IMG/VR virus record: IMGVR_UViG_3300031251_000970
Coordinates: 17,877 to 81,876 of that record
Strand: one strand, 5' to 3'
DNA length: 64,000 nt
DNA from: a virus
In this document: piece after piece, positions 1 to 38,346 of the stretch
Position numbering within the stretch: the stretch's first letter is position 1
Layout: every line of letters starts with the position of its first letter
The notes under the pieces: model-generated
The model's database searches: none
Told to the model about the DNA's origin: nothing
The model's input: only the letters and a program-made list of their open reading frames with translations
Made by a program: the position numbers and the translations under genes

Positions 1-63
1 TTCGACCATGTCTCCCTCGTGGAACTTTCGTCCCAGTGCCGCAGATTCATTTTGCGAACTCAT
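1..63 (-). CDS. partial hypothetical protein (5' end only, MSSQNESAALGRKFHEGDMVE...)
   Basis: ATG at 63 preceded by GAAAGGA RBS, just after the stop of the 234-aa gene; the frame runs off the window. Confidence 0.55.
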   Translation of the reverse strand, partial: MSSQNESAALGRKFHEGDMVE

Positions 64-75
64 TTTCGGTTCCTT

Positions 76-780
76 TCAAAGTCCTGATTGCCATTGATGA
101 GCGGGATGCTGATTTGCTTTCCGCCAGAAAAACGCTTCTCTTGCTCGGATCATGATGAGATGAGCGATGACTTCATCCGTCGGCACCATTGCTCCATATG
201 TGGTCCCTTCGTAGTACCCGAGCGGATGCAGACACAGAGCACAGAGAATCTTCATTTCTCCGTTCTGATCGGGAGCAAGAGCGATCGTCGGCTTTCCCTT
301 TCGCAGCCAATAGGTCACGCCCGATTTCTTTGATGATTCGAGAATCATTCCATGCAGCACATATGCCGCGAACAAATGCGGCTTGATCATCTGCCGCAGA
401 GTATCCATCGCAATCAATTCGGCTTCCATGTCCTGCACTTCGGCGACTTCGAATACCGCGAGTTGTCTTTTTATTCCGCCTCCCAGTCGTTCGCGGCATT
501 CCAGTTCAATGCCATGTCCGCGTTTTCCATTGTGCTCGAAAATCACGACGGTTCCGCCGCGTCGCGGACACCACCAGGAGTTGATGATTTTCCATTCGCC
601 GAGCTCGTCACTTATTGCTGATTCCTCGGCTCCGAGAGTCGCTCCATTCAATGTCGGAATCCCATACCCTTCCGCGATTGAAAGCGGGAAACTTGCGATC
701 GGAACTGGAGCACCACACCATTCGCCACGTTCAGCCGCGATCTCGCTTGCGACCTTCGATATTTGCAGCATTGTGACCAT
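76..780 (-). CDS. hypothetical protein with conserved-looking C-terminal domain (LCLHP...PTDEVIAH...WRKAN); partner of the Gly-Gly protein
   Basis: 234-aa ORF; its ATG directly abuts the TGA of the upstream gene. Confidence 0.75.
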   Translation of the reverse strand: MVTMLQISKVASEIAAERGEWCGAPVPIASFPLSIAEGYGIPTLNGATLGAEESAISDELGEWKIINSWWCPRRGGTVVIFEHNGKRGHGIELECRERLGGGIKRQLAVFEVAEVQDMEAELIAMDTLRQMIKPHLFAAYVLHGMILESSKKSGVTYWLRKGKPTIALAPDQNGEMKILCALCLHPLGYYEGTTYGAMVPTDEVIAHLIMIRAREAFFWRKANQHPAHQWQSGL

Positions 781-1086
781 TCAACCACCTGCCGTTCGAG
801 GGACGCCAATTGCCTTCGTTTTGTCCATCGCGACGCGGCGAGATTTGTATCCTCCCCGCTTCGCCGGAGTCGTCGCCGGTTCTGTGATGATGTATTCATC
901 GCGATCGGGGTCGAACTTTTTGACCGGATGAAGTTCTCCGTCAACTTCAATCGCAAGCAGATACCCGCGTTTCAGCATGTCGTTAATCATCGTTTTTGCT
1001 TTTTTGATGTCATCCGGTTTCGACTTGTCGATCTTCACTCGGATGTCACCCGCAGAGCAGTTCAAGATTCTCAATTCTCCAGACAT
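781..1086 (-). CDS. small protein ending in Gly-Gly (candidate ubiquitin-like modifier), 101 aa
   Basis: Start re-called at MSGELRIL (GAAAGGA RBS); ends PRTAGG-stop. Confidence 0.75.
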   Translation of the reverse strand: MSGELRILNCSAGDIRVKIDKSKPDDIKKAKTMINDMLKRGYLLAIEVDGELHPVKKFDPDRDEYIITEPATTPAKRGGYKSRRVAMDKTKAIGVPRTAGG

Positions 1087-1088
1087 CT

Positions 1089-1397
1089 TCAATTCCTTTC
1101 GGGGTCGTTTTCGAGCATGAATTCTTCCACGTATTCCTCCAAATTGCAGCCCAGATTTAATCCGATTCTCAGGCATTCTCTCGATTCAACGCTGTGAAGT
1201 TTATCTTTCGCACACACCGCTACGAATACTGCCGCAGAGAGCAGAGCTTGAACGGCGACCATCGCATCGACGTCTGACATTCGCCATTGCTCCAGAACGC
1301 CGTTAATCAACTCATCCGAGTATTCAGCGATTTGAGCGAGAAGTTTTTCGAAATCCTCATCGCTCATTTCGTCGCCGATGTTGTCCGCCTGTTTCAT
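1089..1397 (-). CDS. hypothetical protein (acidic, helical)
   Basis: Start re-called at MKQAD; ATGA overlap with the upstream 32-aa ORF. Confidence 0.65.
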   Translation of the reverse strand: MKQADNIGDEMSDEDFEKLLAQIAEYSDELINGVLEQWRMSDVDAMVAVQALLSAAVFVAVCAKDKLHSVESRECLRIGLNLGCNLEEYVEEFMLENDPERN

Positions 1398-1492
1398 TTT
1401 CCAATCCCCAGCAAAATAAACCCGTAGGTCGCGAATCCGAATCCGGCAACAATCGCCGAATCCATTAAAAGTCCTGACAGATATTTGTGCAT
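1394..1492 (-). CDS. 32-aa hydrophobic peptide (MHKYLSGLLMDSAIVAGFGFATYGFILLGIGK)
   Basis: Not in the ORF track; AAGGAG RBS, single hydrophobic stretch, ATGA coupling to the next gene. Confidence 0.55.
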   Translation of the reverse strand: MHKYLSGLLMDSAIVAGFGFATYGFILLGIGK

Positions 1493-1546
1493 GAGTCGAC
1501 TCCTTGAATGAGATATTCAATCATCGACAAAATGCATCTCCATTCT

Positions 1547-2065
1547 TCAGCTTATCGCCGTCAGCATGGAATCCGATCGCAGATAGAGCGGATGCTTCGG
1601 CTCGCCTGATTTCGTCAAGCCAAAATGATAAACCGTCCTGCCGAACAAAATTCTCTTCACGTCTCTTGATCGATTCTCGTGCGATCCATGATTACCCCAA
1701 GCGATGATTGTGCGGCCTGCTCGTGAAACAACGAATTGAATTGCTCGATCATTGTCAGGTCCGATCGGATGCGGATGATTCCTCATCGCGATTGGGCACG
1801 TCGATCGAAACGCGAACGCATTGAGCATGATCAATCCGTTGTATCCCCATCGTTTTGCGAACCCGATGCAGCGAGTGATTGTTGGATCGTTTTTGGTTTC
1901 ATCGGCCGTCGACGGATTCAATCCGATGACGCAGAGCATGTCGGAACAAATCGACTTATTGAACATATCCGGCTTTTCCCAGCGTCGCCATAGCGTGTAT
2001 CGATAGATTCGATCCTCGCTGAATACCGCTCCTGAATCGTCGTCGCCAATCCATTCCGAGACCAT
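1547..2065 (-). CDS. DUF1643 family protein
   Basis: Motifs YRYTLWRRW, IGLNPSTADE..DPTITRC, AWG..G, PKHPLY; start re-called at MVSEW (TGATG overlap). Confidence 0.85.
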   Translation of the reverse strand: MVSEWIGDDDSGAVFSEDRIYRYTLWRRWEKPDMFNKSICSDMLCVIGLNPSTADETKNDPTITRCIGFAKRWGYNGLIMLNAFAFRSTCPIAMRNHPHPIGPDNDRAIQFVVSRAGRTIIAWGNHGSHENRSRDVKRILFGRTVYHFGLTKSGEPKHPLYLRSDSMLTAIS

Positions 2066-2349
2066 CACGATACAACCTCGACTTCCGCTTTCGGCTTGGG
2101 TTTTCCGTCGGCATCCCACTGTGCGGAGAACAGTTCTTTCTTCGAACCGTAACGCATGGATAATTTTCCGAGCTTGTCGATGGATGCATCGATCGCGGCC
2201 ATGTCGACGGTTCCCGGTCCGCCGAGTTTCATCAGGGCGATGGCTTCCGTGAAAACATCCATTCGGCATTTCGCGACTTCGGCTCCCATCTCGATGAATG
2301 TTTTTTGAGCCTTGCTCAATTTCTTGGATTTCGGTTTTTCTTCCGTCAT
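2065..2349 (-). CDS. hypothetical protein
   Basis: 94-aa ORF, coupled to the DUF1643 gene. Confidence 0.65.
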   Translation of the reverse strand: MTEEKPKSKKLSKAQKTFIEMGAEVAKCRMDVFTEAIALMKLGGPGTVDMAAIDASIDKLGKLSMRYGSKKELFSAQWDADGKPKPKAEVEVVS

Positions 2350-2358
2350 TTTTTCTTC

Positions 2359-3720
2359 CTAAAACTGTCGGTCCACATAGTCTGAGAATTCACGTTGATT
2401 CCCATCGACTGGCAAAATCCGCTGCCGTTTGAAATCGCAAACCATCTCGATCGATTGTCCGCGACCCTCTCGATTTCGATTCTTGTCGCACAAGATTCGA
2501 TATTCGTTTTTGTTGGCGTAGGTCGGATCAAGCATGCTCGGAATGTATGGCAGCAAGATCACATCCGCATCGGCTTCGAGCGACCCCGAGCCTTTCAAAT
2601 CGCTCGACTGCGGTACGAGATTGTTTCGACCCTGAACTTGTCGATTGAGTTGAGCCAGCAACAAAATCACGATCTCGTGACGACCCGCGACCTGCTTCAA
2701 TCTCATCGATACGTTGCCGATTTGTTGTTCGAGCGTATCGCCTTTCCCCTCGACCATCTGAGCATAATCGACCGCGACGATCTGAACTCGGTGCGATTTC
2801 ACAGCCCGAGCGATTGTTCGTTCGACTTTCGCAATCGTTCGACATTTCTCCGAGACCAGTACCGGAGCCCGAACGCTGAAATGTTGCTTCACTTCGTCCA
2901 CGAGTGTTGTGATGTTGTCCCGCCAAGTTTCTTTCGGCATTTTCGACAAATAGGCGATTGTCCGACTGGCGACATTTTGCGTCGACATCTCCTCGCTGAT
3001 CATCAATCCCGCGATCCCCTTCCGCGAGGCTTCGTCGAGCCATTGCAACGCGACGCACGATTTCCCATGCGATGGTCTCGCCCCAATGACGATCAAATCT
3101 CCTTTGCTGACGCCCTGAATCAAATCGTCGATCTCTCGGATTCCCCACCAGAGCGAGGGCAACGCGCCGGTCGCGAGCGAATTCACTTCTGCCTGAGTGT
3201 GATCCTGCAAAGTTCGCGGACGTGATCTCTTGACCGACAACGACTCGGCCATTCGCATCGCGGCATCGTGAGCGTTTTCGATGATTTCCTGATCGTCCTT
3301 GGTCACGTCAAATGCCGATTGAACGAGTTGTTCGCCGATTGCGATCATTTTCCGACGCCTCGCACGCGAAACGACGATTGCGGCATAGCTGAGCATGTGC
3401 GATGAGTCGAATTCGGCCTCAAGAATCTCCAATAACGCATGCGGACCGCCAATTTCTGCCAAATCTCCGTTCGATTCCAGTTGATCTCCAACCAGGATCA
3501 CGTCCACATTGCCGTCATTCGCGTCGTAAACCTGCCAGATCGCTTTCTGAACCTTTCGACTCAAATCCGAGTAATAATCCTCGAGCGAGAGCGTTTCACG
3601 CAGTTTGACGACATCCTCGATGAATTTTGACGCTCCAAACTTGCCAGTGAGCATCTGCGAAGCCAAGAGGCTTTTCTCGGCTGCGAGGTTCTGAGGAGGG
3701 ATGCGGAGTTTTTGATTCAT
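2359..3720 (-). CDS. dnaB: replicative DnaB-like helicase
   Basis: N-terminal PPQNLAAEKSLL, Walker A GARPSHGKS, VDYAQ, LAQLNR, SDLKGSGSLEADAD. Confidence 0.95.
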   Translation of the reverse strand: MNQKLRIPPQNLAAEKSLLASQMLTGKFGASKFIEDVVKLRETLSLEDYYSDLSRKVQKAIWQVYDANDGNVDVILVGDQLESNGDLAEIGGPHALLEILEAEFDSSHMLSYAAIVVSRARRRKMIAIGEQLVQSAFDVTKDDQEIIENAHDAAMRMAESLSVKRSRPRTLQDHTQAEVNSLATGALPSLWWGIREIDDLIQGVSKGDLIVIGARPSHGKSCVALQWLDEASRKGIAGLMISEEMSTQNVASRTIAYLSKMPKETWRDNITTLVDEVKQHFSVRAPVLVSEKCRTIAKVERTIARAVKSHRVQIVAVDYAQMVEGKGDTLEQQIGNVSMRLKQVAGRHEIVILLLAQLNRQVQGRNNLVPQSSDLKGSGSLEADADVILLPYIPSMLDPTYANKNEYRILCDKNRNREGRGQSIEMVCDFKRQRILPVDGNQREFSDYVDRQF

Positions 3721-4742: not shown

Positions 4743-5303
4743 TCAATCCGCAAGTTGATTTTCCGAGAGAGATCGAATCTCTTTGAAAATGATTCGTCGA
4801 TATTTCATCGCAAGTCGGTCTCGCGGTTTTCCATGCAGGAAATTTCCGCCATTGCGATCGATGTGAATTCGTTCGAGGACGATCATAAAATAAAGTAGGG
4901 ATGCACTCGCCAAAATGTCCAAATTGGAGCAACCTTCGATCTGGAGGAGATCATTTATCGAGTCGCAGATTCTGCCTTCGAGAGCATAAATCTCCTTCCA
5001 GTTTTCTGAAAACCATTTTTCGTCAGAAGTCGCCTTTCTGCGATTCAATATCGAATCTACTTCGGATTCGTCTAACGAGATTCCGATTCTCCCTTGATTG
5101 CATTCTCTGCAAACCGCGATCAAATTATCGAAGTACTCTCCTCCGCCGCTGGTCATCGGGCGAATATGGCCACACTCAAGTACAATTTCTGGACTTTTCC
5201 TGCCGCAAAATTGGCAGGTAAATGAATCTCGACTTAGAACTCGAAATCGCTCGGCTTTTGTTCTCCAAACCATCGGTCGACCTCCAAAACGAACAACCCG
5301 CAT
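4743..5303 (-). CDS. HNH endonuclease domain protein
   Basis: RFRVLSRDSFTCQFCG...LECGHIRP...GG...NLIAVCRECNQGR. Confidence 0.85.
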   Translation of the reverse strand: MRVVRFGGRPMVWRTKAERFRVLSRDSFTCQFCGRKSPEIVLECGHIRPMTSGGGEYFDNLIAVCRECNQGRIGISLDESEVDSILNRRKATSDEKWFSENWKEIYALEGRICDSINDLLQIEGCSNLDILASASLLYFMIVLERIHIDRNGGNFLHGKPRDRLAMKYRRIIFKEIRSLSENQLAD

Positions 5304-12733: not shown

Positions 12734-13050
12734 TGCGACTTTCAGCGATGACGACCACAGAGAGAGATCGATTGACGCCGCATGTCATGAAGCGATGGGA
12801 TGATCTGATCGCTTTATTTCAGAGTTTTGGCATTACATCGAGCACGATTATCGGCAGCGATACGGATCGACAAATTGTCGTTTGGTTAATGGAGGACAAG
12901 GACATCATCGTCGACGACAGCAGGACCGTAATCAGCGAGGAAACTCTCTCTCGACGGGCGGAAGCCTACGATCTCGATGTCGAAATTCTGCGTCAATGGT
13001 ATATCAATTGGCACATTCTGAAACTGCCACCAAAAAACGCATCACAATAG
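12733..13050 (+). CDS. hypothetical protein
   Basis: TAATG coupling and GGAGG RBS. Confidence 0.7.
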   Translation: MRLSAMTTTERDRLTPHVMKRWDDLIALFQSFGITSSTIIGSDTDRQIVVWLMEDKDIIVDDSRTVISEETLSRRAEAYDLDVEILRQWYINWHILKLPPKNASQ

Positions 13051-14148
13051 TCCGCGTCGATTCAGTTCGTCGGTCAGATTCGAATAGGCTTTATCCGTCG
13101 GAAGCCGCTCGGATGCGAATGTTCTCGCATTCGCTTCGAATTGCTTTCGTCGCTTTCCATCCTGCAAAACGCTTACGACAGCCATCGCGAACTCATCCGG
13201 ACTATCCGTTATGATCGCACAATATCCGCTCGTTTCCTCAAATCCATCGATTCCATGAGTATTCGCAACTACGGCTTTCCCGTGCGAGAGAGCCGCGATG
13301 AACTTGAGTTTCGAACCACCGCCGTGAAATGTCGGAACGATGCAGACCCGAGTTTCCGCATATTCTTGCGTCAAATCTTCGACTCGGCCAAGCAGCTTGA
13401 CTCCCTGATATTGACCGACGTTGATTCCGTTGCAGACGTTCCCGGCAATATGCAGAGTCGCTCCGATCGAATATCGTCGAATCGTGGACCAGCAGTTTTC
13501 CAGGAACCTTTCAATCGCGATGCAGTTCTCGCGGACGCCTGACGCAACGTAGAAGATTCGGCCAGGATGCTGAAGCGATTCGTCCGTGAAGTTCAGTTCC
13601 GATGAGAGATTGACCCGCACGACGGAGGTTCCGTTTGTCATCCGCAGACATTCGAGTCGGTCTTGTTCCTGAATCGTGACGATCAAATCGGCTTTTTGCA
13701 GACATTCCGATTCTTCGGCTTCTGTCCATTGATGATGATGGTGATGGAATCCGTGCTTTTCGAAATCGGCGAGAACTCGTATTCGTAAATCCGGAACGAG
13801 GATTATTTTCCACGATCGCCAGTCGAGATAATCATGAACCGCAGCGATCCATGAATAATTCGCGACGACGATTTCAGGATTGATTCGCTCGAAAACCCAT
13901 TGAGTTATTCTGCATTCCCCTTCAGTCGCCGGAGAATCATAATGAGGCGGCTGCTGATTTCCGATGACCACCTTGGCGATGGATTCCAATTCGGGCGAGA
14001 TTGGCCGCGACATTCCCAAAAACAGATAGGTGATCTCGAATCCGACCGACTTCAGATACCGGCAGAAGTCCAGAATCATCGTATCGATGCCGCTTGATCC
14101 GGGCTCCGCGAGATTTCTCGCCACAAATAATGCCTGATTGATGATCAT
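13042..14148 (-). CDS. GT-B fold glycosyltransferase (GT4-like)
   Basis: LHIAG...LLGRVEDL...CIVP...GGGSKLKFIAALSHGKAVV. Confidence 0.85.
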   Translation of the reverse strand: MIINQALFVARNLAEPGSSGIDTMILDFCRYLKSVGFEITYLFLGMSRPISPELESIAKVVIGNQQPPHYDSPATEGECRITQWVFERINPEIVVANYSWIAAVHDYLDWRSWKIILVPDLRIRVLADFEKHGFHHHHHQWTEAEESECLQKADLIVTIQEQDRLECLRMTNGTSVVRVNLSSELNFTDESLQHPGRIFYVASGVRENCIAIERFLENCWSTIRRYSIGATLHIAGNVCNGINVGQYQGVKLLGRVEDLTQEYAETRVCIVPTFHGGGSKLKFIAALSHGKAVVANTHGIDGFEETSGYCAIITDSPDEFAMAVVSVLQDGKRRKQFEANARTFASERLPTDKAYSNLTDELNRRGLL

Positions 14149-14834
14149 TCCTTTCGCAAAATGAGATGGAATCCCTTGTGCGGTTCCTCCGCTACATCGA
14201 CATCAGAACCGCGACCGTTTCCGCGAACGAAATCGGTATGTCGAAACTGATGAGAAGCGACTTCGATCAATCCATTTTCGCAAAATCGATCGATCCACCA
14301 TTGCTTACTTCTTACGGTTTGATGGTAGATGATCTCGGGAGTGTCGGATTGATTTTCCATGCTGACCGATGCGACGAAAAGCCCGTTATTCGCCAAATGA
14401 GACTTGATGTTCTCGATCAATCCAAACAGGTCTGATTCGGCGATATGCTCCAGAACTTCCCACGCCGTTATGATCTTGAATTTCCGCTGGTTCGATAATT
14501 CGTCGACAATTTGAAATGGTTTCGTGATGTCGGCCGTGAAAAGATGATCCGCGAATTGTCCGCCCCATTCGGCTCGCTTCGTTTTTTGATTGATATCACT
14601 TCCTTCGACGCCGATCGAGTCGATTCCGGTTTGACACATCAATGCGACCATTCCGCCGCCAGCACATCCCAAATCGAGCATTCGTGGACGCGGAAAATGG
14701 CGAAGACACGCATCGACGAACAATGGATTGACCGAATTATCGTTGATCGTTCCGCGAGGGAATCGATGATCGATACTGTTGACCGCGACCGGATGCTTTG
14801 TGCGGATGAAAGACTTTTGAAGCATTTGACTCAT
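14145..14834 (-). CDS. class I SAM-dependent methyltransferase
   Basis: MLDLGCAGG, GVEGSD, ADITKP, AWEVLEHI; ATGA-coupled at both ends. Confidence 0.9.
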   Translation of the reverse strand: MSQMLQKSFIRTKHPVAVNSIDHRFPRGTINDNSVNPLFVDACLRHFPRPRMLDLGCAGGGMVALMCQTGIDSIGVEGSDINQKTKRAEWGGQFADHLFTADITKPFQIVDELSNQRKFKIITAWEVLEHIAESDLFGLIENIKSHLANNGLFVASVSMENQSDTPEIIYHQTVRSKQWWIDRFCENGLIEVASHQFRHTDFVRGNGRGSDVDVAEEPHKGFHLILRKE

Positions 14835-16516
14835 TCCGTGATTACGGGTTCCCATTCAATTTTCCGGCCACGAGCAACCCATGCTCGATAATTGGATTCG
14901 TCATTGATTCCGCGTTGCTTTCCGAGTTCGGCGGTTTCGTCCCAGTGAGCGAGTCCCATAGTGGCTTGGCGGTGGAGTATTTTCGACTTGAAACATTGAT
15001 GAGCACACGAGTTTTTGACAGCCAAATCGAACGTCGCCACATCATTAAACCATCGCTTGAAGAGATTGATACACAAAACTCCTCCAAGAACGTTTAGGCA
15101 AAATGGTCTCGTGACGATCGTTCTCGTAAATATCTGACCGCCGATGACTCTTAAATCCGGATCGTAAAGCCCGAAACAGGCGACGTCGGGATTTCCGATT
15201 TCCGCATGTTTCTCCAAAACCTTGTCGAACCAGTCGGCATGATCGTAAACCAAATCATCATCGGCGATTTTCAGCCAGAATCCTTTCGAATGCATCAATC
15301 CGACATTCCAGCAAGTGATCGGATCGGCATCATGGAAGACGACCTGCAATCCTGGATACGACTCCTGATCCTTTGCCATTTCCACCAGAATCGATGCAGC
15401 GTCTTCCGGATGGCTGATGCAGATGAATTCTCGATCGTGACCGCGAGTCGTCTCGTAGAAGCCCTTAATCGATTCCGCTGCTTGTGCCGAACGTCCACGA
15501 GTCGGCATGATTCCCGAAAGAATCGGCCGATTTGTTGTTTTGACATCTCGTCGCGAAAGCACATCTTGCCGGGTTTTCTTCAGCCATTTTTCATTGTGCG
15601 ACAATGGGCGAAGCTCGCATCCCTCGCAAATGAGTTGCGTTTGATCGCTGGAATGCTTCCACGGCGTGGCGAAACCGACTGGATTCTGCGGTTCCTTGCA
15701 CTCGAATATCGGGGTTTTCATGTCCAAAACATCGACAATCGAGCCGCGATAAACGCATGGCAATTGCTGCATCACCTTCGCTGTTCTGTCGAGCGGGACT
15801 TGTTCGCCGAAATCCCACCATTCCTCCGGCTTTAGAACTTGTTCTTCGCTGCCAGCACGTCTTGAAACGTCTGAAGCCCCCCCCCGTTGACCGATCAGCC
15901 ATCGCGTCGGAGCGTATGCATTAAAATCCGCGATCCAATGAGCGATCATCACGTCACAGTCACCGTGCTGCCATTGATGCCAGAATTTGTAGAGTTCTGT
16001 CATTCCTCGACCGAATGCCGCATAGGCATGACAACGATCAATTTGCGTGAGTTTGACCACATGCGGATTGATCGGAATCGGAGGTTGCATATGGTTTCCG
16101 CCAAGCCATACAAATTCGCGATCCGGCGGAAGAAATCGAAAGAACTCTTCGGCTGCTTCGGTGAAATCCGGTCTTAGAATCGCATCGTCTTCGAGTATCA
16201 ACACCGATTCGCAACCGTCATTTAACGCATCCTCCAATGCTCGCCGATGACTCTGCAAACAACCCCACACCCCGGCCGTTCGAACGAATCTCACGTTCAC
16301 GGAAACATTCATGCCGTTGTGTTCCGGCAATTGAATCTGATGTTCATCCGGAGGAGGGCATCTCTGACCGTCGATTGCTTTCATGAAGATCGGCGATTTG
16401 AAGGGCCAATTCAGCAATTCCGCTTCGATCGCTTCCCGTCGGTCGGTTCTGCGTTCGAGATTGATGACTACGACTCGATCGAAAATGTCAAACAGATTCA
16501 ATTTTCGCCCTTTCAA
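14831..16516 (-). CDS. glycosyltransferase fusion: GT25-like + Cys-rich linker + GT2-like
   Basis: VINLERRTDRR, GCLQSH, LILEDDA; then GIMPTRGR...ADDD; start is TTG at 16516 or 16501. Confidence 0.85.
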   Translation of the reverse strand: MKGRKLNLFDIFDRVVVINLERRTDRREAIEAELLNWPFKSPIFMKAIDGQRCPPPDEHQIQLPEHNGMNVSVNVRFVRTAGVWGCLQSHRRALEDALNDGCESVLILEDDAILRPDFTEAAEEFFRFLPPDREFVWLGGNHMQPPIPINPHVVKLTQIDRCHAYAAFGRGMTELYKFWHQWQHGDCDVMIAHWIADFNAYAPTRWLIGQRGGASDVSRRAGSEEQVLKPEEWWDFGEQVPLDRTAKVMQQLPCVYRGSIVDVLDMKTPIFECKEPQNPVGFATPWKHSSDQTQLICEGCELRPLSHNEKWLKKTRQDVLSRRDVKTTNRPILSGIMPTRGRSAQAAESIKGFYETTRGHDREFICISHPEDAASILVEMAKDQESYPGLQVVFHDADPITCWNVGLMHSKGFWLKIADDDLVYDHADWFDKVLEKHAEIGNPDVACFGLYDPDLRVIGGQIFTRTIVTRPFCLNVLGGVLCINLFKRWFNDVATFDLAVKNSCAHQCFKSKILHRQATMGLAHWDETAELGKQRGINDESNYRAWVARGRKIEWEPVITE

Positions 16517-16770
16517 ATTCGTTCGAAGATGTGCCAGACGACCACGCCATTTTGAACGGTTCCGCGATAATAGGTTTCGGTTGTATCGAATTCTTGCCCC
16601 GTGCCGATTATCAAAAATTCACGATCGACTTCGATTCGATCAGGATTGCAAATTGCCCACATGCAAATCTGGCCATTTTGCACTTGAACATCGACAATCA
16701 CCGAGTCTCTCGGCATTCGAATTCGCTGTTCCATTCGCACTTCAAGAGGAAACTTCCAAATAACCGACAT
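16513..16770 (-). CDS. conserved small phage protein (IWKFPL...QVQ...MWA...GTG...GTVQ...VWHIFE)
   Basis: Motif pattern widespread in phage hypotheticals; GAAAGGA RBS. Confidence 0.75.
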   Translation of the reverse strand: MSVIWKFPLEVRMEQRIRMPRDSVIVDVQVQNGQICMWAICNPDRIEVDREFLIIGTGQEFDTTETYYRGTVQNGVVVWHIFERI

Positions 16771-16884
16771 GATTGATTCCTTTCCAAAATAAGAAATGCT
16801 GCTTTATCGCCGATGATCATCAGGCGGTCATATATTCGATTTCGTCTATCAGTTGCAGAGATTCCGCACCATCGTATTCTTCGA

Positions 16885-17136
16885 TTACGAACCGCTTTCC
16901 TTTCTCGATCCATACAACATAAAGGCCATGGGAGCCGCCGGTATAAAAATACATCCGCATTTTCTTTCGGCGATTTCTACCGCCTTATCGATATCCTCGT
17001 CGATTACCGCTTGGACAATTTCCGAATCCATCGTCAATAACTCTTGAATGTCATCGTCGGCCCATGTACTCCATCCGGCTCCGAATCCCGCAGAAATGAG
17101 TACGCCGATCTTTCCATCTTTCTCGATTTTTTCCAC
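16885..17136 (-). CDS. hypothetical protein (VLISAGFGAGWSTW motif)
   Basis: TAAGGAG RBS, GTG start; motif common in phage hypotheticals. Confidence 0.7.
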   Translation of the reverse strand: MEKIEKDGKIGVLISAGFGAGWSTWADDDIQELLTMDSEIVQAVIDEDIDKAVEIAERKCGCIFIPAAPMAFMLYGSRKESGS

Positions 17137-17190
17137 TTAACCACTCCTTATTTTCAATGAGTTCTCTGTCGACCGTGCTTCGCGATATTA

Positions 17191-17219
17191 TTGTTACTGA
17201 ATATTTGATTCAATTGCAA
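17191..17219 (-). promoter_or_regulatory. putative sigma70 promoter
   Basis: TTGCAA-17-TAACAA in an AT-rich gap. Confidence 0.4.
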
Positions 17220-17228
17220 GAGCACAAA

Positions 17229-17263
17229 CGAACAAACCTCGACTGATCAAACAATCGAGGCTT
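17229..17263 (-). terminator. putative intrinsic terminator after the GT25 gene
   Basis: Stem AGCCTCGATTG/CAGTCGAGGTT followed by TGTTCGTTTG. Confidence 0.5.
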
Positions 17264-17306
17264 ATCCGCGTCAAGTTGTCACCGAGACATCGGCATCGTA
17301 TCTCGG

Positions 17307-19121
17307 CTATCCGGCGTTTCCAAGCATCTTGGCAACGTATTCTTGCTCAGTCATCTCCAATTGGTCGCGAACGGTTTGAATCGCCAAATCGAGCAATCCG
17401 GGACACGGGTCGAACCAGTTGATTTTGAATGCGAGACCTGTTTGAACCGCTTTTGTCGCCGCAATTCGATAGGTCTCCCAAGAAGTTTCCTTCATCTTTT
17501 CCCGCAACCGAAACACGATATCGTTTCGATTCTCCTCGCAGCCTGTCGGCCCCCACTGATTCATTTTCTGAATCCAGTCGATGCAGCCGAAACAGGCTTC
17601 GATACCGATGGACTTCAATATTTTCGCAACCTCTGTTCCGACTCCCTGCGAGATCGGAATGCTTGCCTTATGAACTGGCTGAAACGGCAAAACCTGAACT
17701 GGATGTTTTTTCGCGTACGATTCCGGGTCGACGATTTGATCGGCATCTTGCCAATACGATTCGGGATTGATTCGACCGTTGATCGACGAAAGTCCGCTCG
17801 CTTGGCCGCACATCCATTCGCCGGGAATGCGAACTTTGATTCCGCCGATTTCGTGCAAATGTCCCATGTGATGATCTATGTGAGACGGACTGCCATCGCT
17901 GTTCGGCGGGAAGGGAGTATTCAGAAAATGCTTGTACAGTTTCTCGAATCCGCTCCGATGAACCGCATAGGCGTGAGTTCGATTCACATTGTAGGGGATG
18001 AATGATTCCGACGAGAATCGTTTCGGCGGGAATTGTTGTTCGGCGAGCATCTGCCCTCCGAGATACGCCTGCTCCCAATTACTCTGAATATCCGACATGA
18101 ATCGGTCGAGTCGATCTTCGAATTGATCTCGGAAAATGACGTCATCTTCGAGGATCAAAACCGATTCGACGCCGTCACTGAAACATCTTTCGATGATCGC
18201 CAAATGGCTTCGATAACAGCCAAATGCACCTCCGCCCGCTTTCCACCAATCTGGAATCGCGATCTTGTCCGCATCGATCGCCGAGAAAACTTCGTATTTC
18301 ATCCATTTCGGACATCTCGATTTGAAGGCTTCCAAACGCTCAGGCCGCGATTTCAGATTGATGACAAACGTTTTCTCGAACGGCGATTTGAACTCGGTTC
18401 CTTCTCCGAGAAACTTGAGATTCTGAAAGAAGTCGATCGATTTGTCTTGTCCATTGATGTCGGAGACTCCGCCCCGTTGTCCGACCAGCCATTTCTCGTG
18501 GGCGTAGACCTTGAATTCGCTCAAATGGCGATTCAACGCCCAATCGCAATGATCCCGATGACCCTTCGACCAAATCGTTTCAAGTTTTTCCATCCCGCTT
18601 CGAGAGAGGGCGTAGGCATGAAGCCGGTCGGTTGAAATTGGCCGCACGAGTCCGGATTCGATTCGATAGGGTCGCTGTCGATGTTCGCCGCCAAAAAAGG
18701 CGAGTTCCCAATCTGTCGGCAGGTTTTCAATAAACCGCTCCGCCTTGAACTCGAAGCTGTCGCAAAACGTCGCGTCGTCCTCCAAGATGAGGATTCGCTC
18801 GCAACCCTCCCGCAATGCCTTCCTGACGCATCCTAGATGACTTTGGCCGCACGCATAGGCGGCAGAACCATGATCGAAGTTCTGAACTTGAACCGTTTCG
18901 CCATCGATTGCCGTGAAAAACTCTGGATCGGCATAGAACGGCCATCCTTTCGCGAATTCGGCTTTCATCTGTTCGCGACGATCCGAACGTCGAGCGAGAT
19001 TGATGACGAAAACTCGGTCGAAAAAGTTCGCAATCTTCATTTTCTCGATTCCGTCATCATTATCTTGCCAATCGTCGAAGTCATCGCTCCAAATATCGCG
19101 GGGAGGTTCGTCATCTGGCAT
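17307..19121 (-). CDS. tandem GT25-like glycosyltransferase (two domains) with C-terminal Cys-containing domain
   Basis: Two copies of FVINL..R..R / C..SH / LILEDD / HAYA; start MPDDE after AAAGGAG. Confidence 0.9.
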   Translation of the reverse strand: MPDDEPPRDIWSDDFDDWQDNDDGIEKMKIANFFDRVFVINLARRSDRREQMKAEFAKGWPFYADPEFFTAIDGETVQVQNFDHGSAAYACGQSHLGCVRKALREGCERILILEDDATFCDSFEFKAERFIENLPTDWELAFFGGEHRQRPYRIESGLVRPISTDRLHAYALSRSGMEKLETIWSKGHRDHCDWALNRHLSEFKVYAHEKWLVGQRGGVSDINGQDKSIDFFQNLKFLGEGTEFKSPFEKTFVINLKSRPERLEAFKSRCPKWMKYEVFSAIDADKIAIPDWWKAGGGAFGCYRSHLAIIERCFSDGVESVLILEDDVIFRDQFEDRLDRFMSDIQSNWEQAYLGGQMLAEQQFPPKRFSSESFIPYNVNRTHAYAVHRSGFEKLYKHFLNTPFPPNSDGSPSHIDHHMGHLHEIGGIKVRIPGEWMCGQASGLSSINGRINPESYWQDADQIVDPESYAKKHPVQVLPFQPVHKASIPISQGVGTEVAKILKSIGIEACFGCIDWIQKMNQWGPTGCEENRNDIVFRLREKMKETSWETYRIAATKAVQTGLAFKINWFDPCPGLLDLAIQTVRDQLEMTEQEYVAKMLGNAG

Positions 19122-19147
19122 GCAATCCACTCCTTTAACCGCGAGAT

Positions 19148-19327
19148 TCACTCGTGCGACCAACCGACATAGAGTTCGATGGCGTAACTCAGCTTTCGCA
19201 TTTCAATGGATTCGCTGATGTCGAAATACGCATTGGAAGCGGAATTGATCATGGGACTGACATTGCTGCCGACTACCAGGATCACCCACAAGATAAATAC
19301 CTCCGCGACGGGAATGGATTTCAACAT
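19148..19327 (-). CDS. 59-aa membrane protein (MLKSIPVAEVFILWVILVVGSNVS...)
   Basis: Not in the ORF track; AAAGGT RBS, one N-terminal TM segment. Confidence 0.55.
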   Translation of the reverse strand: MLKSIPVAEVFILWVILVVGSNVSPMINSASNAYFDISESIEMRKLSYAIELYVGWSHE

Positions 19328-36945: not shown

Positions 36946-38289
36946 TCAGCGAGCGGCCACGCCCACGAAACTGGATTGGGTATTCGTACCCTGATAAGGA
37001 GTCGTCGGAGCGTTTTCCCAAGGAATCGCGTTCATTCGCATCGTGAACCGCAACGCCATCTGATCCGTCAGGAATTCGACGTGCATCGAGACGGCTTGCT
37101 GAATTCCACCCTTGGAGATCGACAGCACCTGCCCGAGATCGGCGAGCACGATATCGCCAGCGGTTCCCAGCGTGGACGCGAATTCGATCGGTTTCATCGG
37201 CAGTCCGCACAGCGTTCCGAACGGCGTCCCGGACATTCCACCAGGAGGCATGTAGGTTGCCACACCGGCCGCACCGATGCCCAAGGTCATCAGCATCAAT
37301 TGCTGTTGAATGTCCTGATTGTGATACCACTTGGCGTTGTTGAGGAACGGAGCGAAGAACCGTCCGAAAATTTTGGCAATATTCTCCGTGACGACCGTTT
37401 TCGGAGTTTGTCCGACTTCGGCCGAGATCGAGAGATAGCTCGGGGCGTTGATGATCCCCAGCGGTTTCGCCACGCCATCACCACGGAAGAGGGCCGCACC
37501 GATCAGGAAGTTGAATTCCTCGGAGGCCTTCCGGGTCACATATTGTTCGAGAGCGGCCGAATTGTCATTGATCAGTTCGTCGGTCAGATAGACGACAACG
37601 GCGACTTTTTGCAGTTTCAATTGGACTTCGCGAAGGGTCGGTTTGCTGGCGGTGATCGTATTGCCTTCACCCGTCCAATAGCCTCGCAGTCCACCATGAC
37701 GAGAACCGTCAACACGGCTCGTTTCGGCGTTCGCCCAAAACGTCATGTTGTTCCCGGCAACCGTGTAGGCGTCGGTCGAGTTGACCAAATCGTTCGAGTA
37801 GATTCGGCTGAAAATCTTGGTCGAGAACTCGGGCAAAACCGTAAAGCCGCCGTCCGCTCCGATACCTTCCGACATCCCTTGGACGGCTTTCATGGCCGAA
37901 CAGGATTTGTAATGGTTGCGAACCCGCTCTTGGAATCCGTTCGAGGCATGACCGTCGAGACCTGCTCGAACGAAGTCGTTCAGTGACTTGAATTCGGACT
38001 TGGGAACATATCCATCCTTAATCAGAGCGGCCATTTGCGATTTGCGGCTGGAAATGCGATTTGCGACCGGTCCGCGAATCTCGTTCGGAGATTGCACGAT
38101 TGTGACCGTGTCATCGTCGTCGCCTTCCGACCATTCGCCAACGATTCGGCCCTGTGCGTCGCGATGAACGCCGCCAAAGTTCGGAGTTGATCCGAGAATC
38201 GACTTGAGAGATTTCAATTCGGCCGACTGCTCGTCATTTTTCTTGATCAGTTCGGCTTGGAGTTTTTCGAGAGTGGCGATGTCAGCCAT
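36946..38289 (-). CDS. major capsid protein, HK97 fold with N-terminal delta domain
   Basis: GADGGFTVLPEF, WTGEG.TI..S, L.KVA..V..TDELI.D, GDG..KPLGI, F.TD..ALRF..R. Confidence 0.95.
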   Translation of the reverse strand: MADIATLEKLQAELIKKNDEQSAELKSLKSILGSTPNFGGVHRDAQGRIVGEWSEGDDDDTVTIVQSPNEIRGPVANRISSRKSQMAALIKDGYVPKSEFKSLNDFVRAGLDGHASNGFQERVRNHYKSCSAMKAVQGMSEGIGADGGFTVLPEFSTKIFSRIYSNDLVNSTDAYTVAGNNMTFWANAETSRVDGSRHGGLRGYWTGEGNTITASKPTLREVQLKLQKVAVVVYLTDELINDNSAALEQYVTRKASEEFNFLIGAALFRGDGVAKPLGIINAPSYLSISAEVGQTPKTVVTENIAKIFGRFFAPFLNNAKWYHNQDIQQQLMLMTLGIGAAGVATYMPPGGMSGTPFGTLCGLPMKPIEFASTLGTAGDIVLADLGQVLSISKGGIQQAVSMHVEFLTDQMALRFTMRMNAIPWENAPTTPYQGTNTQSSFVGVAAR

Positions 38290-38346
38290 GTTAAAAATCC
38301 CTTTAAGAGCGTGGTACAAAACAGATGGCCGCTTTGGCCACGGTCC

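Follow-up and report, generated by a model that had tools for sequence, protein, structure and literature searches.

The early region of a tailed-phage provirus carries two adjoining genes, one for a small protein with a free Ala-Gly-Gly end and the other for a larger partner with an invariant Cys-x-His-Pro loop. Together they make up a real, widespread and undescribed phage module. Its construction recalls a minimal pair of ubiquitin or carrier type, but it fails the sequence and motif tests for E2 and for ThiS/MoaD. The pair lies in a window of 64,000 nucleotides, the final 64 kb of the 81.9-kb IMG/VR provirus record IMGVR_UViG_3300031251_000970 (positions 17,877 to 81,876). We regard it as a probably obligate two-protein unit of tailed phages, in which the free Ala-Gly-Gly end is predicted to share one interface with the Cys-x-His-Pro loop. 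A literature search of articles without their supplementary files did not turn up a description of such a phage pair lacking an E1.

Both genes are read from the minus strand. The small gene ends in ACG GCA GGT GGT TGA and is followed at once by ATG GTC ACA, the start of the partner gene. An earlier note on this DNA, made by a model from the letters, had described a coupled pair with the TGA abutting the ATG; the open reading frames (ORFs) and their translations agree, and the note had omitted only that both are on the minus strand. The small protein begins with MSGELRILNC and ends with IGVPRTAGG. Its open frame extends to a possible start at 1176; all eight close homologues (8/8) begin at the MSGEL methionine, and the sequence AAGGA lies 9 nt 5' of this ATG.

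Both families are large and almost without annotation. A profile search with the small protein retrieved 608 representatives of clusters formed at 50% identity at E<=1e-3, and 452 at E<=1e-10. A word-indexed search with the partner retrieved 99 homologues, none with a Pfam domain and none named in its source as anything but 'hypothetical'. The earlier note had likened the two proteins to widespread hypothetical families that occur together. When viral loci were collected with the partner as seed, the small gene adjoined it in 58 of 64 (upstream in 53, downstream in 5); this count excludes the window's own locus, L001, with which there are 59 rows. Two more of these loci have weak small-gene matches, and in one of them (L049) the protein ends in APVAGG plus two residues. 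With the small protein as seed, the partner was present at 30 of 33 viral loci, and in two of the three loci that do not have it the small protein is also tail-less. One locus with neither tail nor partner (L147:1134-4988) has a TnpB-like gene starting just inside the 3' end of the small gene; the gene upstream appears to encode a PP-loop (SGGKDS) protein of the PAPS-reductase/DndC-like type with a C-terminus of its own in TLGG. Both labels come from reading the sequence.

The partner is also found at 52 loci in bacterial genomes, nearly all of them metagenome-assembled. These are distributed over Verrucomicrobiota, Planctomycetota, Alpha-, Beta- and Gammaproteobacteria, Acidobacteriota, Chloroflexota, Saccharibacteria (candidate phyla radiation) and others, and 37 of the 52 carry both genes. 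Among the 15 without a small-gene match, five have the partner no more than about 200 nt from the end of a contig, and ten have partial matches, at least two of which are frameshifted (L097 and L113). The pair also occurs in the prophages of two cultured strains, Sphingopyxis flava R11H (L092) and Verrucomicrobium sp. BvORR034 (L096). A tblastn search of 50,697 deposited phage records in INPHARED gave zero matches. A set of Verrucomicrobiota loci (L097, L105, L110 and L112-L115) contains fragments of the partner C-terminal domain without the small gene (...MRGSEEKFWANANQHP...); judging from their sequences, they seem to be what remains of decaying prophages, all from a single, closely related subfamily.

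Clustering of the neighbouring ORFs at the 64 viral loci revealed no third conserved gene. The commonest other neighbours are DUF5131 (about 12 loci), DnaB (8), C5 DNA methylase (7) and DUF2303 (6). Since the two genes are mutually adjacent and no third gene is conserved with them, they form a self-contained two-gene unit that travels in phage DNA-metabolism modules.

The small protein has a conserved end. The tail of the window protein, RRVAMDKTKAIGVPRTAGG, follows a family consensus of approximately R-[VI]-P-[AM]-x-x-[AT]-[KR]-A-[TV]-[AG]-[VI]-[AG]-[RP]-[TS]-A-G-G. Conservation of the terminal Gly-Gly, named in the earlier note as a test of its proposal, is seen in 138 of the 150 best family representatives (61 end in TAGG and 51 in SAGG), in 57 of the 58 viral small-gene neighbours and in 35 of the 37 from bacterial genomes. 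This is far above chance expectation.

The nucleotide sequence offers a trivial explanation, in which Ala-Gly-Gly is simply the shadow of a Shine-Dalgarno sequence for the downstream gene (GCA GGA GGT contains AGGAGG). In the window, GCA GGT GGT does place AGGTGG 5 nt before the partner ATG, and GGA is frequent at the first Gly codon. Codon variation, however, rules this explanation out, and we give it a negligible chance. Among 86 distinct tails, GGC is commonest at both positions (first Gly: GGC 35, GGA 32, GGG 11, GGT 8; second Gly: GGC 32, GGA 22, GGT 21, GGG 11), and all four Ala codons and all three stop codons are used. In addition, at the five loci with reversed gene order, where the partner lies upstream, four small proteins still end in Ala-Gly-Gly and the fifth (L041) has an extension. 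The mixed Gly, Ala and stop codons and the retention of Ala-Gly-Gly in reversed loci therefore point to selection on the free Gly-Gly end of the protein itself.

Of the 12 exceptions among the 150 representatives, seven retain Ala-Gly-Gly and continue for a further 10-40 residues. Extended small proteins, reaching 2-40 residues past Ala-Gly-Gly, were noted in P0126, P0137, P0140, P0159, P0163, P0184 and P0209, at L041:6654-7124 and at L088, L107 and L049. Several of the extensions open with a related G-[LF]-G...F-[FP]-P, and that of L041, about 20 residues long, is Cys-rich. By analogy with ubiquitin-like precursors, the extended proteins may be precursors that require cleavage.

The remainder of the small protein was analysed with an alignment (A4) of 112 of 158 small proteins, picked for a Gly-Gly end and a single-stretch match, so that the invariance of G100 and G101 in this alignment is by construction. 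It divides the protein into a head, a linker and the tail (see the table below). The linker is basic (median Lys plus Arg fraction 0.24); a GRP motif occurs in 38 of the 112 members and weak Pfam AT_hook matches in 10. Apart from these, Pfam searches of the 112 members one by one gave only noise, with no nucleotidyltransferase domain either in these or in the 101-residue protein. For the two window proteins, Pfam, PHROGs and PADLOC returned only chance-level rows, and ESM Atlas yielded unnamed viral clusters only. A likeness of the small protein to FkbM methyltransferases (TM score 0.47-0.49) was discounted because the underlying Atlas model is poor (pLDDT 0.50).

Conservation in the partner was measured in an alignment (A3) of 88 of the 99 homologues, from which partial and long forms were dropped (P0024, P0071, P0078, P0081, P0083, P0089, P0091, P0092, P0095, P0097 and P0099). 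Two other alignments were made, one with 40 of the 99 (A2) and one with the window's C-terminal domain and 96 homologues (A5; P0099 dropped). Nine residues are invariant in all 88 members (E121, L128, S153, Y157, R160, T165, L182, C183 and H185), seven are kept in 87 (A124, Y140, E148, P200, D202, E215 and W219) and four in 84-85 (S150, H207, N223 and H225). C183 and H185 are each kept in 97 of 97 sequences of the C-terminal-domain alignment. The partner motifs pointed out beforehand are all in place (LCALCLHP at 179-186, PTDE at 200-203, H207 and WRKANQH at 219-225), and the expected invariant Cys, His and Asp are found as C183 and H185 (88/88 each) and D202 (87/88). The key cysteine is, however, the second of LCALCLHP; the first, C180, is Cys in just 50 of 88.

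AlphaFold2 predicts the partner with high confidence (pLDDT 93.5, and 95.2 for the C-terminal domain alone). Pfam searches of the 88 members one by one gave only noise, and a profile search of PDB sequences gave chance-level rows only. Designed Kelch-like SAKe proteins were rejected, since their score came from a recurring DG...DP..DEY word and no one stretch was significant. Foldseek found nothing in the PDB at E<=0.001 with either the whole model or the C-terminal domain, and MoaE, ThiG, papain-like, JAB and sortase folds were not among the 50 structure rows listed per search. The search of BFVD gave one unnamed match, A0A1P8DIP4 (E 4e-6). A second BFVD entry with a neighbouring accession number, A0A1P8DIR1 (probability 0.99), also resembles the partner model; going by these models, a single virus may have the partner in duplicate. 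Among long forms there is a single 426-residue protein with an N-terminal extension only, and the search of long forms, which is weak evidence, found the partner fused neither to the small protein nor to any known domain.

The predicted complex of the two proteins supports their binding. The model has an ipSAE of 0.77 (0.77, 0.73 and 0.80 in the runs) compared with 0.00 for the best of three controls; 58 of 80 solved complexes attain the mark used for this score, as do 2 of 110 mismatched pairs, a rough benchmark since the alignments were self-supplied. At least 90% of contacts are common to the runs, and the pLDDT of the partner chain is at least 84. On the small-protein side the predicted interface comprises the first hairpin (6-15), the end of a helix (33-45), residues 51-54 and the tail (93-101), and on the partner side residues 8-25, 34-39, 116-127, 183-189, 197-199 and 202-223. 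The best-defined contacts in the model are those of D202 with L8, N9 and G13, which have the least expected error, of residue 93 with 209 and of residue 95 with 206; E121 and A124 lie against G13. The contacts 93-209 and 95-206 imply that the modelled tail runs along helix 200-213 toward its N-terminal end, the Cys-x-His loop and residues 197-199.

The earlier note had proposed docking of the Gly-Gly tail at the Cys as a check. In the model, partner residues 183-189 and 197-199 and tail residues 93-101 share the predicted interface; the final step, in which the last glycine would reach C183, is drawn by elimination, the G101-C183 pair being absent from the listed contacts. Covariation between tail and partner (mutual information, 88 pairs) shows a weak enrichment, with 10 of the top 30 at interface positions against a baseline of 21%. 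A conserved polar patch on the meander (E148, S153, Y157, R160 and T165) lies outside the predicted interface and is accounted for by no reading considered here.

In its arrangement the modelled C-terminal domain is weakly E2-, RWD- or UEV-like. With VIA-align, 17 of its best 50 rows are E2, Atg10, UEV or RWD domains, including CdnG-E2 (8hsb_B). His185-Pro186 stands at the end of strand 4 and would match the E2 His-Pro-Asn site by the order of elements rather than by residue-level superposition. Pro186 is followed by I, L, V or M in the 88 members and never by Asn. The canonical position of the E2 Cys after His-Pro-Asn is not conserved as Cys: 29 of the 88 members have Cys at residue 199, which lies 14 past His185 and immediately ahead of the following helix, against 51 with Val and 5 with Ala, and the invariant Cys183 stands two residues before the His. 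Since the Asn is missing and the Cys relocated, we call the domain E2/RWD-like and do not file it as an E2. Of the 26 Pfam families listed for the 88 members at E<=1, the 25 most-matched do not include UQ_con, Prok-E2, RWD or UEV.

The genes that normally accompany such proteins were also sought. The earlier note had recognised neither an E1 nor a JAB gene, and this holds for the whole 81.9-kb record, which has zero matches to PF00899 (ThiF) and to PF14464 (Prok-JAB). For ThiF it extends to 11 phage records (this one and 10 others with the pair, 8 of the 10 at least 90% complete), in which no match exceeds the cut-off; the two that fall short of it, at 15.8 and 12.1 bits, have the appearance of generic Rossmann similarity. 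For Prok-JAB this record is the only one searched. Host genomes carrying the pair do encode ThiS/MoaD (5 of 5 tested), and the 13 translated proteins all end in Gly-Gly, five of them in Ala-Gly-Gly like the phage tail. The small protein family is not recognisably related to them: hhalign of A4 with 11 host ThiS/MoaD sequences gave a probability of 0.8%, and ThiS (PF02597) is not among the 25 most-matched of 49 families at E<=1 in the 112 members. Nor does the tail follow the last strand directly, since a head-tail linker with a median of 33 residues intervenes.

The reading that we prefer, tentatively and with its chances short of even, is that the pair is a tail-in-pocket unit in which the Gly-Gly carboxylate is reactive and Cys183 and His185 are a catalytic pair, the nearest analogue being the E1-less E2-CBASS. 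According to the E2-CBASS study (bioRxiv 10.1101/2022.05.25.493364), a stand-alone E2 (Cys101/His87) takes the C-terminal tail of the cyclase into a pocket and cleaves after Gly406; a thioester and, after it, an isopeptide bond are made with no E1 involved. It is because of this precedent, a tail handled by an E2 without an E1, that we favour a covalent reading. The chemistry, source of energy and target we infer as follows. In the small subunit a globular head would be joined to the 18-residue tail by a flexible basic linker, which is AT-hook-like in some members. The large subunit would bind the head and thread the tail along helix 200-213 toward the Cys183-x-His185-Pro loop, where Cys183 would take up the tail as an acyl-thioester, or in a related covalent form, before the tail is passed on or processed. 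Activation might be provided by a host enzyme in trans or, in minority members, by cleavage of the extension of 10-40 residues. The two-component conjugation system proposed in the earlier note is thus supported as to the pair, the Gly-Gly, the invariant Cys and His and the modelled interface, and failed in the E2 and ThiS/MoaD sequence and motif tests.

Several observations weigh against this reading and would be explained as well by a non-covalent, obligate heterodimer. Here the partner would be an inert RWD/UEV-like adaptor, with Cys and His either structural or lining a carboxylate pocket, and the pair, through its DNA-binding linker, a replication, recombination or regulatory factor. The confidently predicted interface is large, taking in head and tail alike, no E1 or energy source is seen, and the surroundings consist of DnaB, ERF, YqaJ, RuvC, DUF5131 and C5-methylase genes. 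Such a dimer would also suit the many invariant residues of both proteins at the interface (D202 with L8, N9 and G13; E121 and A124 with G13), the RWD and UEV domains among the structural matches and the basic, partly AT-hook-like linker. On the other hand, the extended variants would obstruct a carboxylate pocket and the polar patch is left unaccounted for. To our knowledge, a Cys and a His that stay invariant at a mean identity of about 35% are unusual in a pocket with a purely structural role, and an invariant terminal Gly-Gly is characteristic of reactive tails rather than of the known modules that bind C-termini. We consider the heterodimer almost as probable as the covalent reading.

Other explanations appear less probable. 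A sulfur-carrier system of the MoaD-MoaE or ThiS-ThiG type, in which a host MoeB/ThiF would adenylate and thiocarboxylate the Gly-Gly and the partner would use the sulfur, perhaps on phage DNA or a nucleotide, is suggested by the ThiS/MoaD of the host genomes with their Gly-Gly and Ala-Gly-Gly ends and by the context of DNA metabolism and modification. It is improbable in view of the hhalign result and the Pfam searches of the 112 members, which have no ThiS among their 25 most-matched families; the long head-tail linker makes recognition of the small-protein body by an E1 doubtful, and nothing ties the partner to sulfur chemistry. We also give little chance to an enzyme with its cognate plug, in which the partner would be a Cys-His hydrolase or transferase acting on a host target and the small-protein tail would block its active site until a signal arrives, as in an inhibitor-effector or toxin-antitoxin-like arrangement. 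Tight translational coupling, strict co-occurrence, the shared predicted interface of tail and Cys-x-His loop and the loss of the tail in two of the three partner-less small proteins would fit this idea; yet no protease, deamidase or transferase fold was recognised, PADLOC gave no match, and the head is conserved as much as the tail, which is beyond the needs of a plug. Finally, the small protein might be a decoy that mimics the Gly-ended tails of ubiquitin-like proteins and CD-NTases and saturates Bil, Bub or type II CBASS defences. The tail does resemble ubiquitin-like C-termini, and phage early regions commonly hold counter-defence genes. A decoy would not, however, need a dedicated and equally conserved Cys-His partner, and the pair occurs in phages of many phyla regardless of host defences; we regard it as very improbable.

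The features of the pair and of the genes before it are collected in the table. Nearly all genes of the window are on the minus strand, and the pair sits within a tightly packed early replication and recombination operon. Downstream of the partner, after a gap of 12 nt, is the gene of a 238-residue protein, and homologues of ERF, YqaJ and RuvC lie farther along. The tailed-phage genes of the window include those for the large terminase (51145-52632), the portal protein (46892-50143) and the major head protein (36946-38319).

Positions in the window of the two genes, their protein regions and the preceding genes of the early operon
Feature	Position	Strand	Details
HNH nuclease gene	4743-5303	-	Early operon; first in minus-strand reading order, then the gene of a 340-residue protein
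DnaB gene	2359-3720	-	Early operon; next gene encodes a 94-residue protein
DUF1643 gene	1547-2269	-	Early operon; 3' of the gene of the 94-residue protein
Gene of 143-residue protein	1089-1520	-	Early operon; directly before the 101-residue protein gene
Small Gly-Gly-tailed protein gene	781..1086	-	101 residues; TGA at 781-783; ORF, 8 close homologues with common start and end
N-terminal globular head, residues 1-70	877..1086	-	Conservation in A4; G13, G41, F58 and Y65 invariant
Variable basic linker, residues 71-83	838..876	-	Family median 33 residues, range 13-54
Conserved C-terminal tail, 18 residues, free Ala-Gly-Gly end	784..837	-	A4, neighbour counts, codon analysis
Partner gene	76..780	-	234 residues; stop 76-78, ATG 778-780; 99 homologues; AlphaFold2 pLDDT 93.5
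Partner N-terminal domain, residues 1-113	442..780	-	Helix, conserved G23-x-P25-x-P27 loop, N67-S-W-W (NSWW), three-stranded meander, long helix
Partner C-terminal domain, residues 114-234	79..441	-	Two helices, four-strand meander (145-183), flap, two helices (200-221)
Cys183-Leu-His185-Pro186 motif, end of strand 4	223..234	-	TGT CTG CAT CCG; C183 88/88, H185 88/88, P186 85/88
Pro200-Thr-Asp202-Glu203, helix start	172..183	-	P200 87/88, D202 87/88; tail predicted along helix

Some other genes of the record deserve mention. The 238-residue protein downstream of the pair (window 1-63; L066:17223-17939, minus strand) has no Pfam match and ends in EDYKSDIPF. We take this end to resemble the acidic C-terminal tip of bacterial single-stranded-DNA-binding protein (SSB); if so, the protein could dock on host proteins that bind SSB. 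A 246-residue protein in the early region of the same record (L066:15629-16369, minus strand), also with no Pfam match, contains a long run of C-S-[GDR]-C repeats (CSGCYGCSRCSDCSDCSGC...). A glycosyltransferase cluster (GT1-like, with 2-3 GT25 domains) occupies 13042-19163 on the minus strand together with an S-adenosylmethionine methyltransferase; its target may be host surface polysaccharide or, possibly, DNA. The portal protein (minus strand) has 1083 residues, with an extra central domain at approximately 520-720 that matches PHROGs of varying label (DarB-like antirestriction, minor head protein, endolysin).

The module, with hundreds of diverged members in phages of many phyla, belongs to no Pfam or PHROG family. 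Should the tail prove reactive, the pair would be the first system of ubiquitin or carrier type that belongs to phages and not to host defences, and one that works without an E1. If the two proteins simply form a tight complex, they would still be a universal two-subunit factor of phage early operons, with an obligatory free Gly-Gly as an unusual recognition rule. A more far-reaching and rather unlikely possibility is that phages of many phyla own an E1-independent tagging system, in which a DNA-tethered Gly-Gly protein is charged on Cys183 of a highly diverged E2-like enzyme and moved, early in infection, to targets of the host or of the phage. Ubiquitin-type conjugation would then have a third branch, a viral one, whose catalytic cysteine is relocated.

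The arrangement of the genes has counterparts in several known systems. In MoaD-MoaE and ThiS-ThiG, a small protein with a free Gly-Gly is encoded beside a larger partner that receives its tail, the two form a stable complex, and the E1 is encoded elsewhere. The phage pair is alike in that a small Gly-Gly protein adjoins a larger partner. It differs in that the MoaD/ThiS tail is carried directly on the last beta-grasp strand and the phage tail comes after a long linker, and in that the partner has no recognised likeness to MoaE or ThiG.

Among phage proteins, the lambda-type tail assembly protein I with gpK (JAB plus NlpC/P60) also combines a ubiquitin-like domain, a conserved C-terminal glycine and a peptidase neighbour, as described by Iyer et al. 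2006 (PMC1779556). Those genes belong to the tail module, whereas the present pair belongs to the early replication module and its partner is unrelated. The bacterial ubiquitin-like operons (classes 6a-6e in PMC1779556; Bil, Bub) likewise join a protein with a C-terminal glycine to an E2-like protein. As described, they always encode an E1-like protein and usually a JAB; with the phage pair, by contrast, there is no ThiF in 11 records and no Prok-JAB in one.

The closest comparison is with E2-CBASS (type II 'short' CBASS of Serratia marcescens, PDB 8hsb; bioRxiv 10.1101/2022.05.25.493364). That system is a bacterial defence, whereas ours is a phage gene pair, and its tail is borne by a CD-NTase nucleotidyltransferase instead of a protein of 100-130 residues without an enzyme domain. 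Compared with the E2 of E2-CBASS, the phage partner has an extra N-terminal domain and no sequence similarity to E2 families, and its invariant Cys comes before His-Pro, whereas the E2 Cys follows the His by about 14 residues. Such displacement has parallels: Iyer et al. 2006 (PMC1779556) report prokaryotic E2-like families with Cys and His at shifted positions as well as inactive, RWD-like E2 folds.

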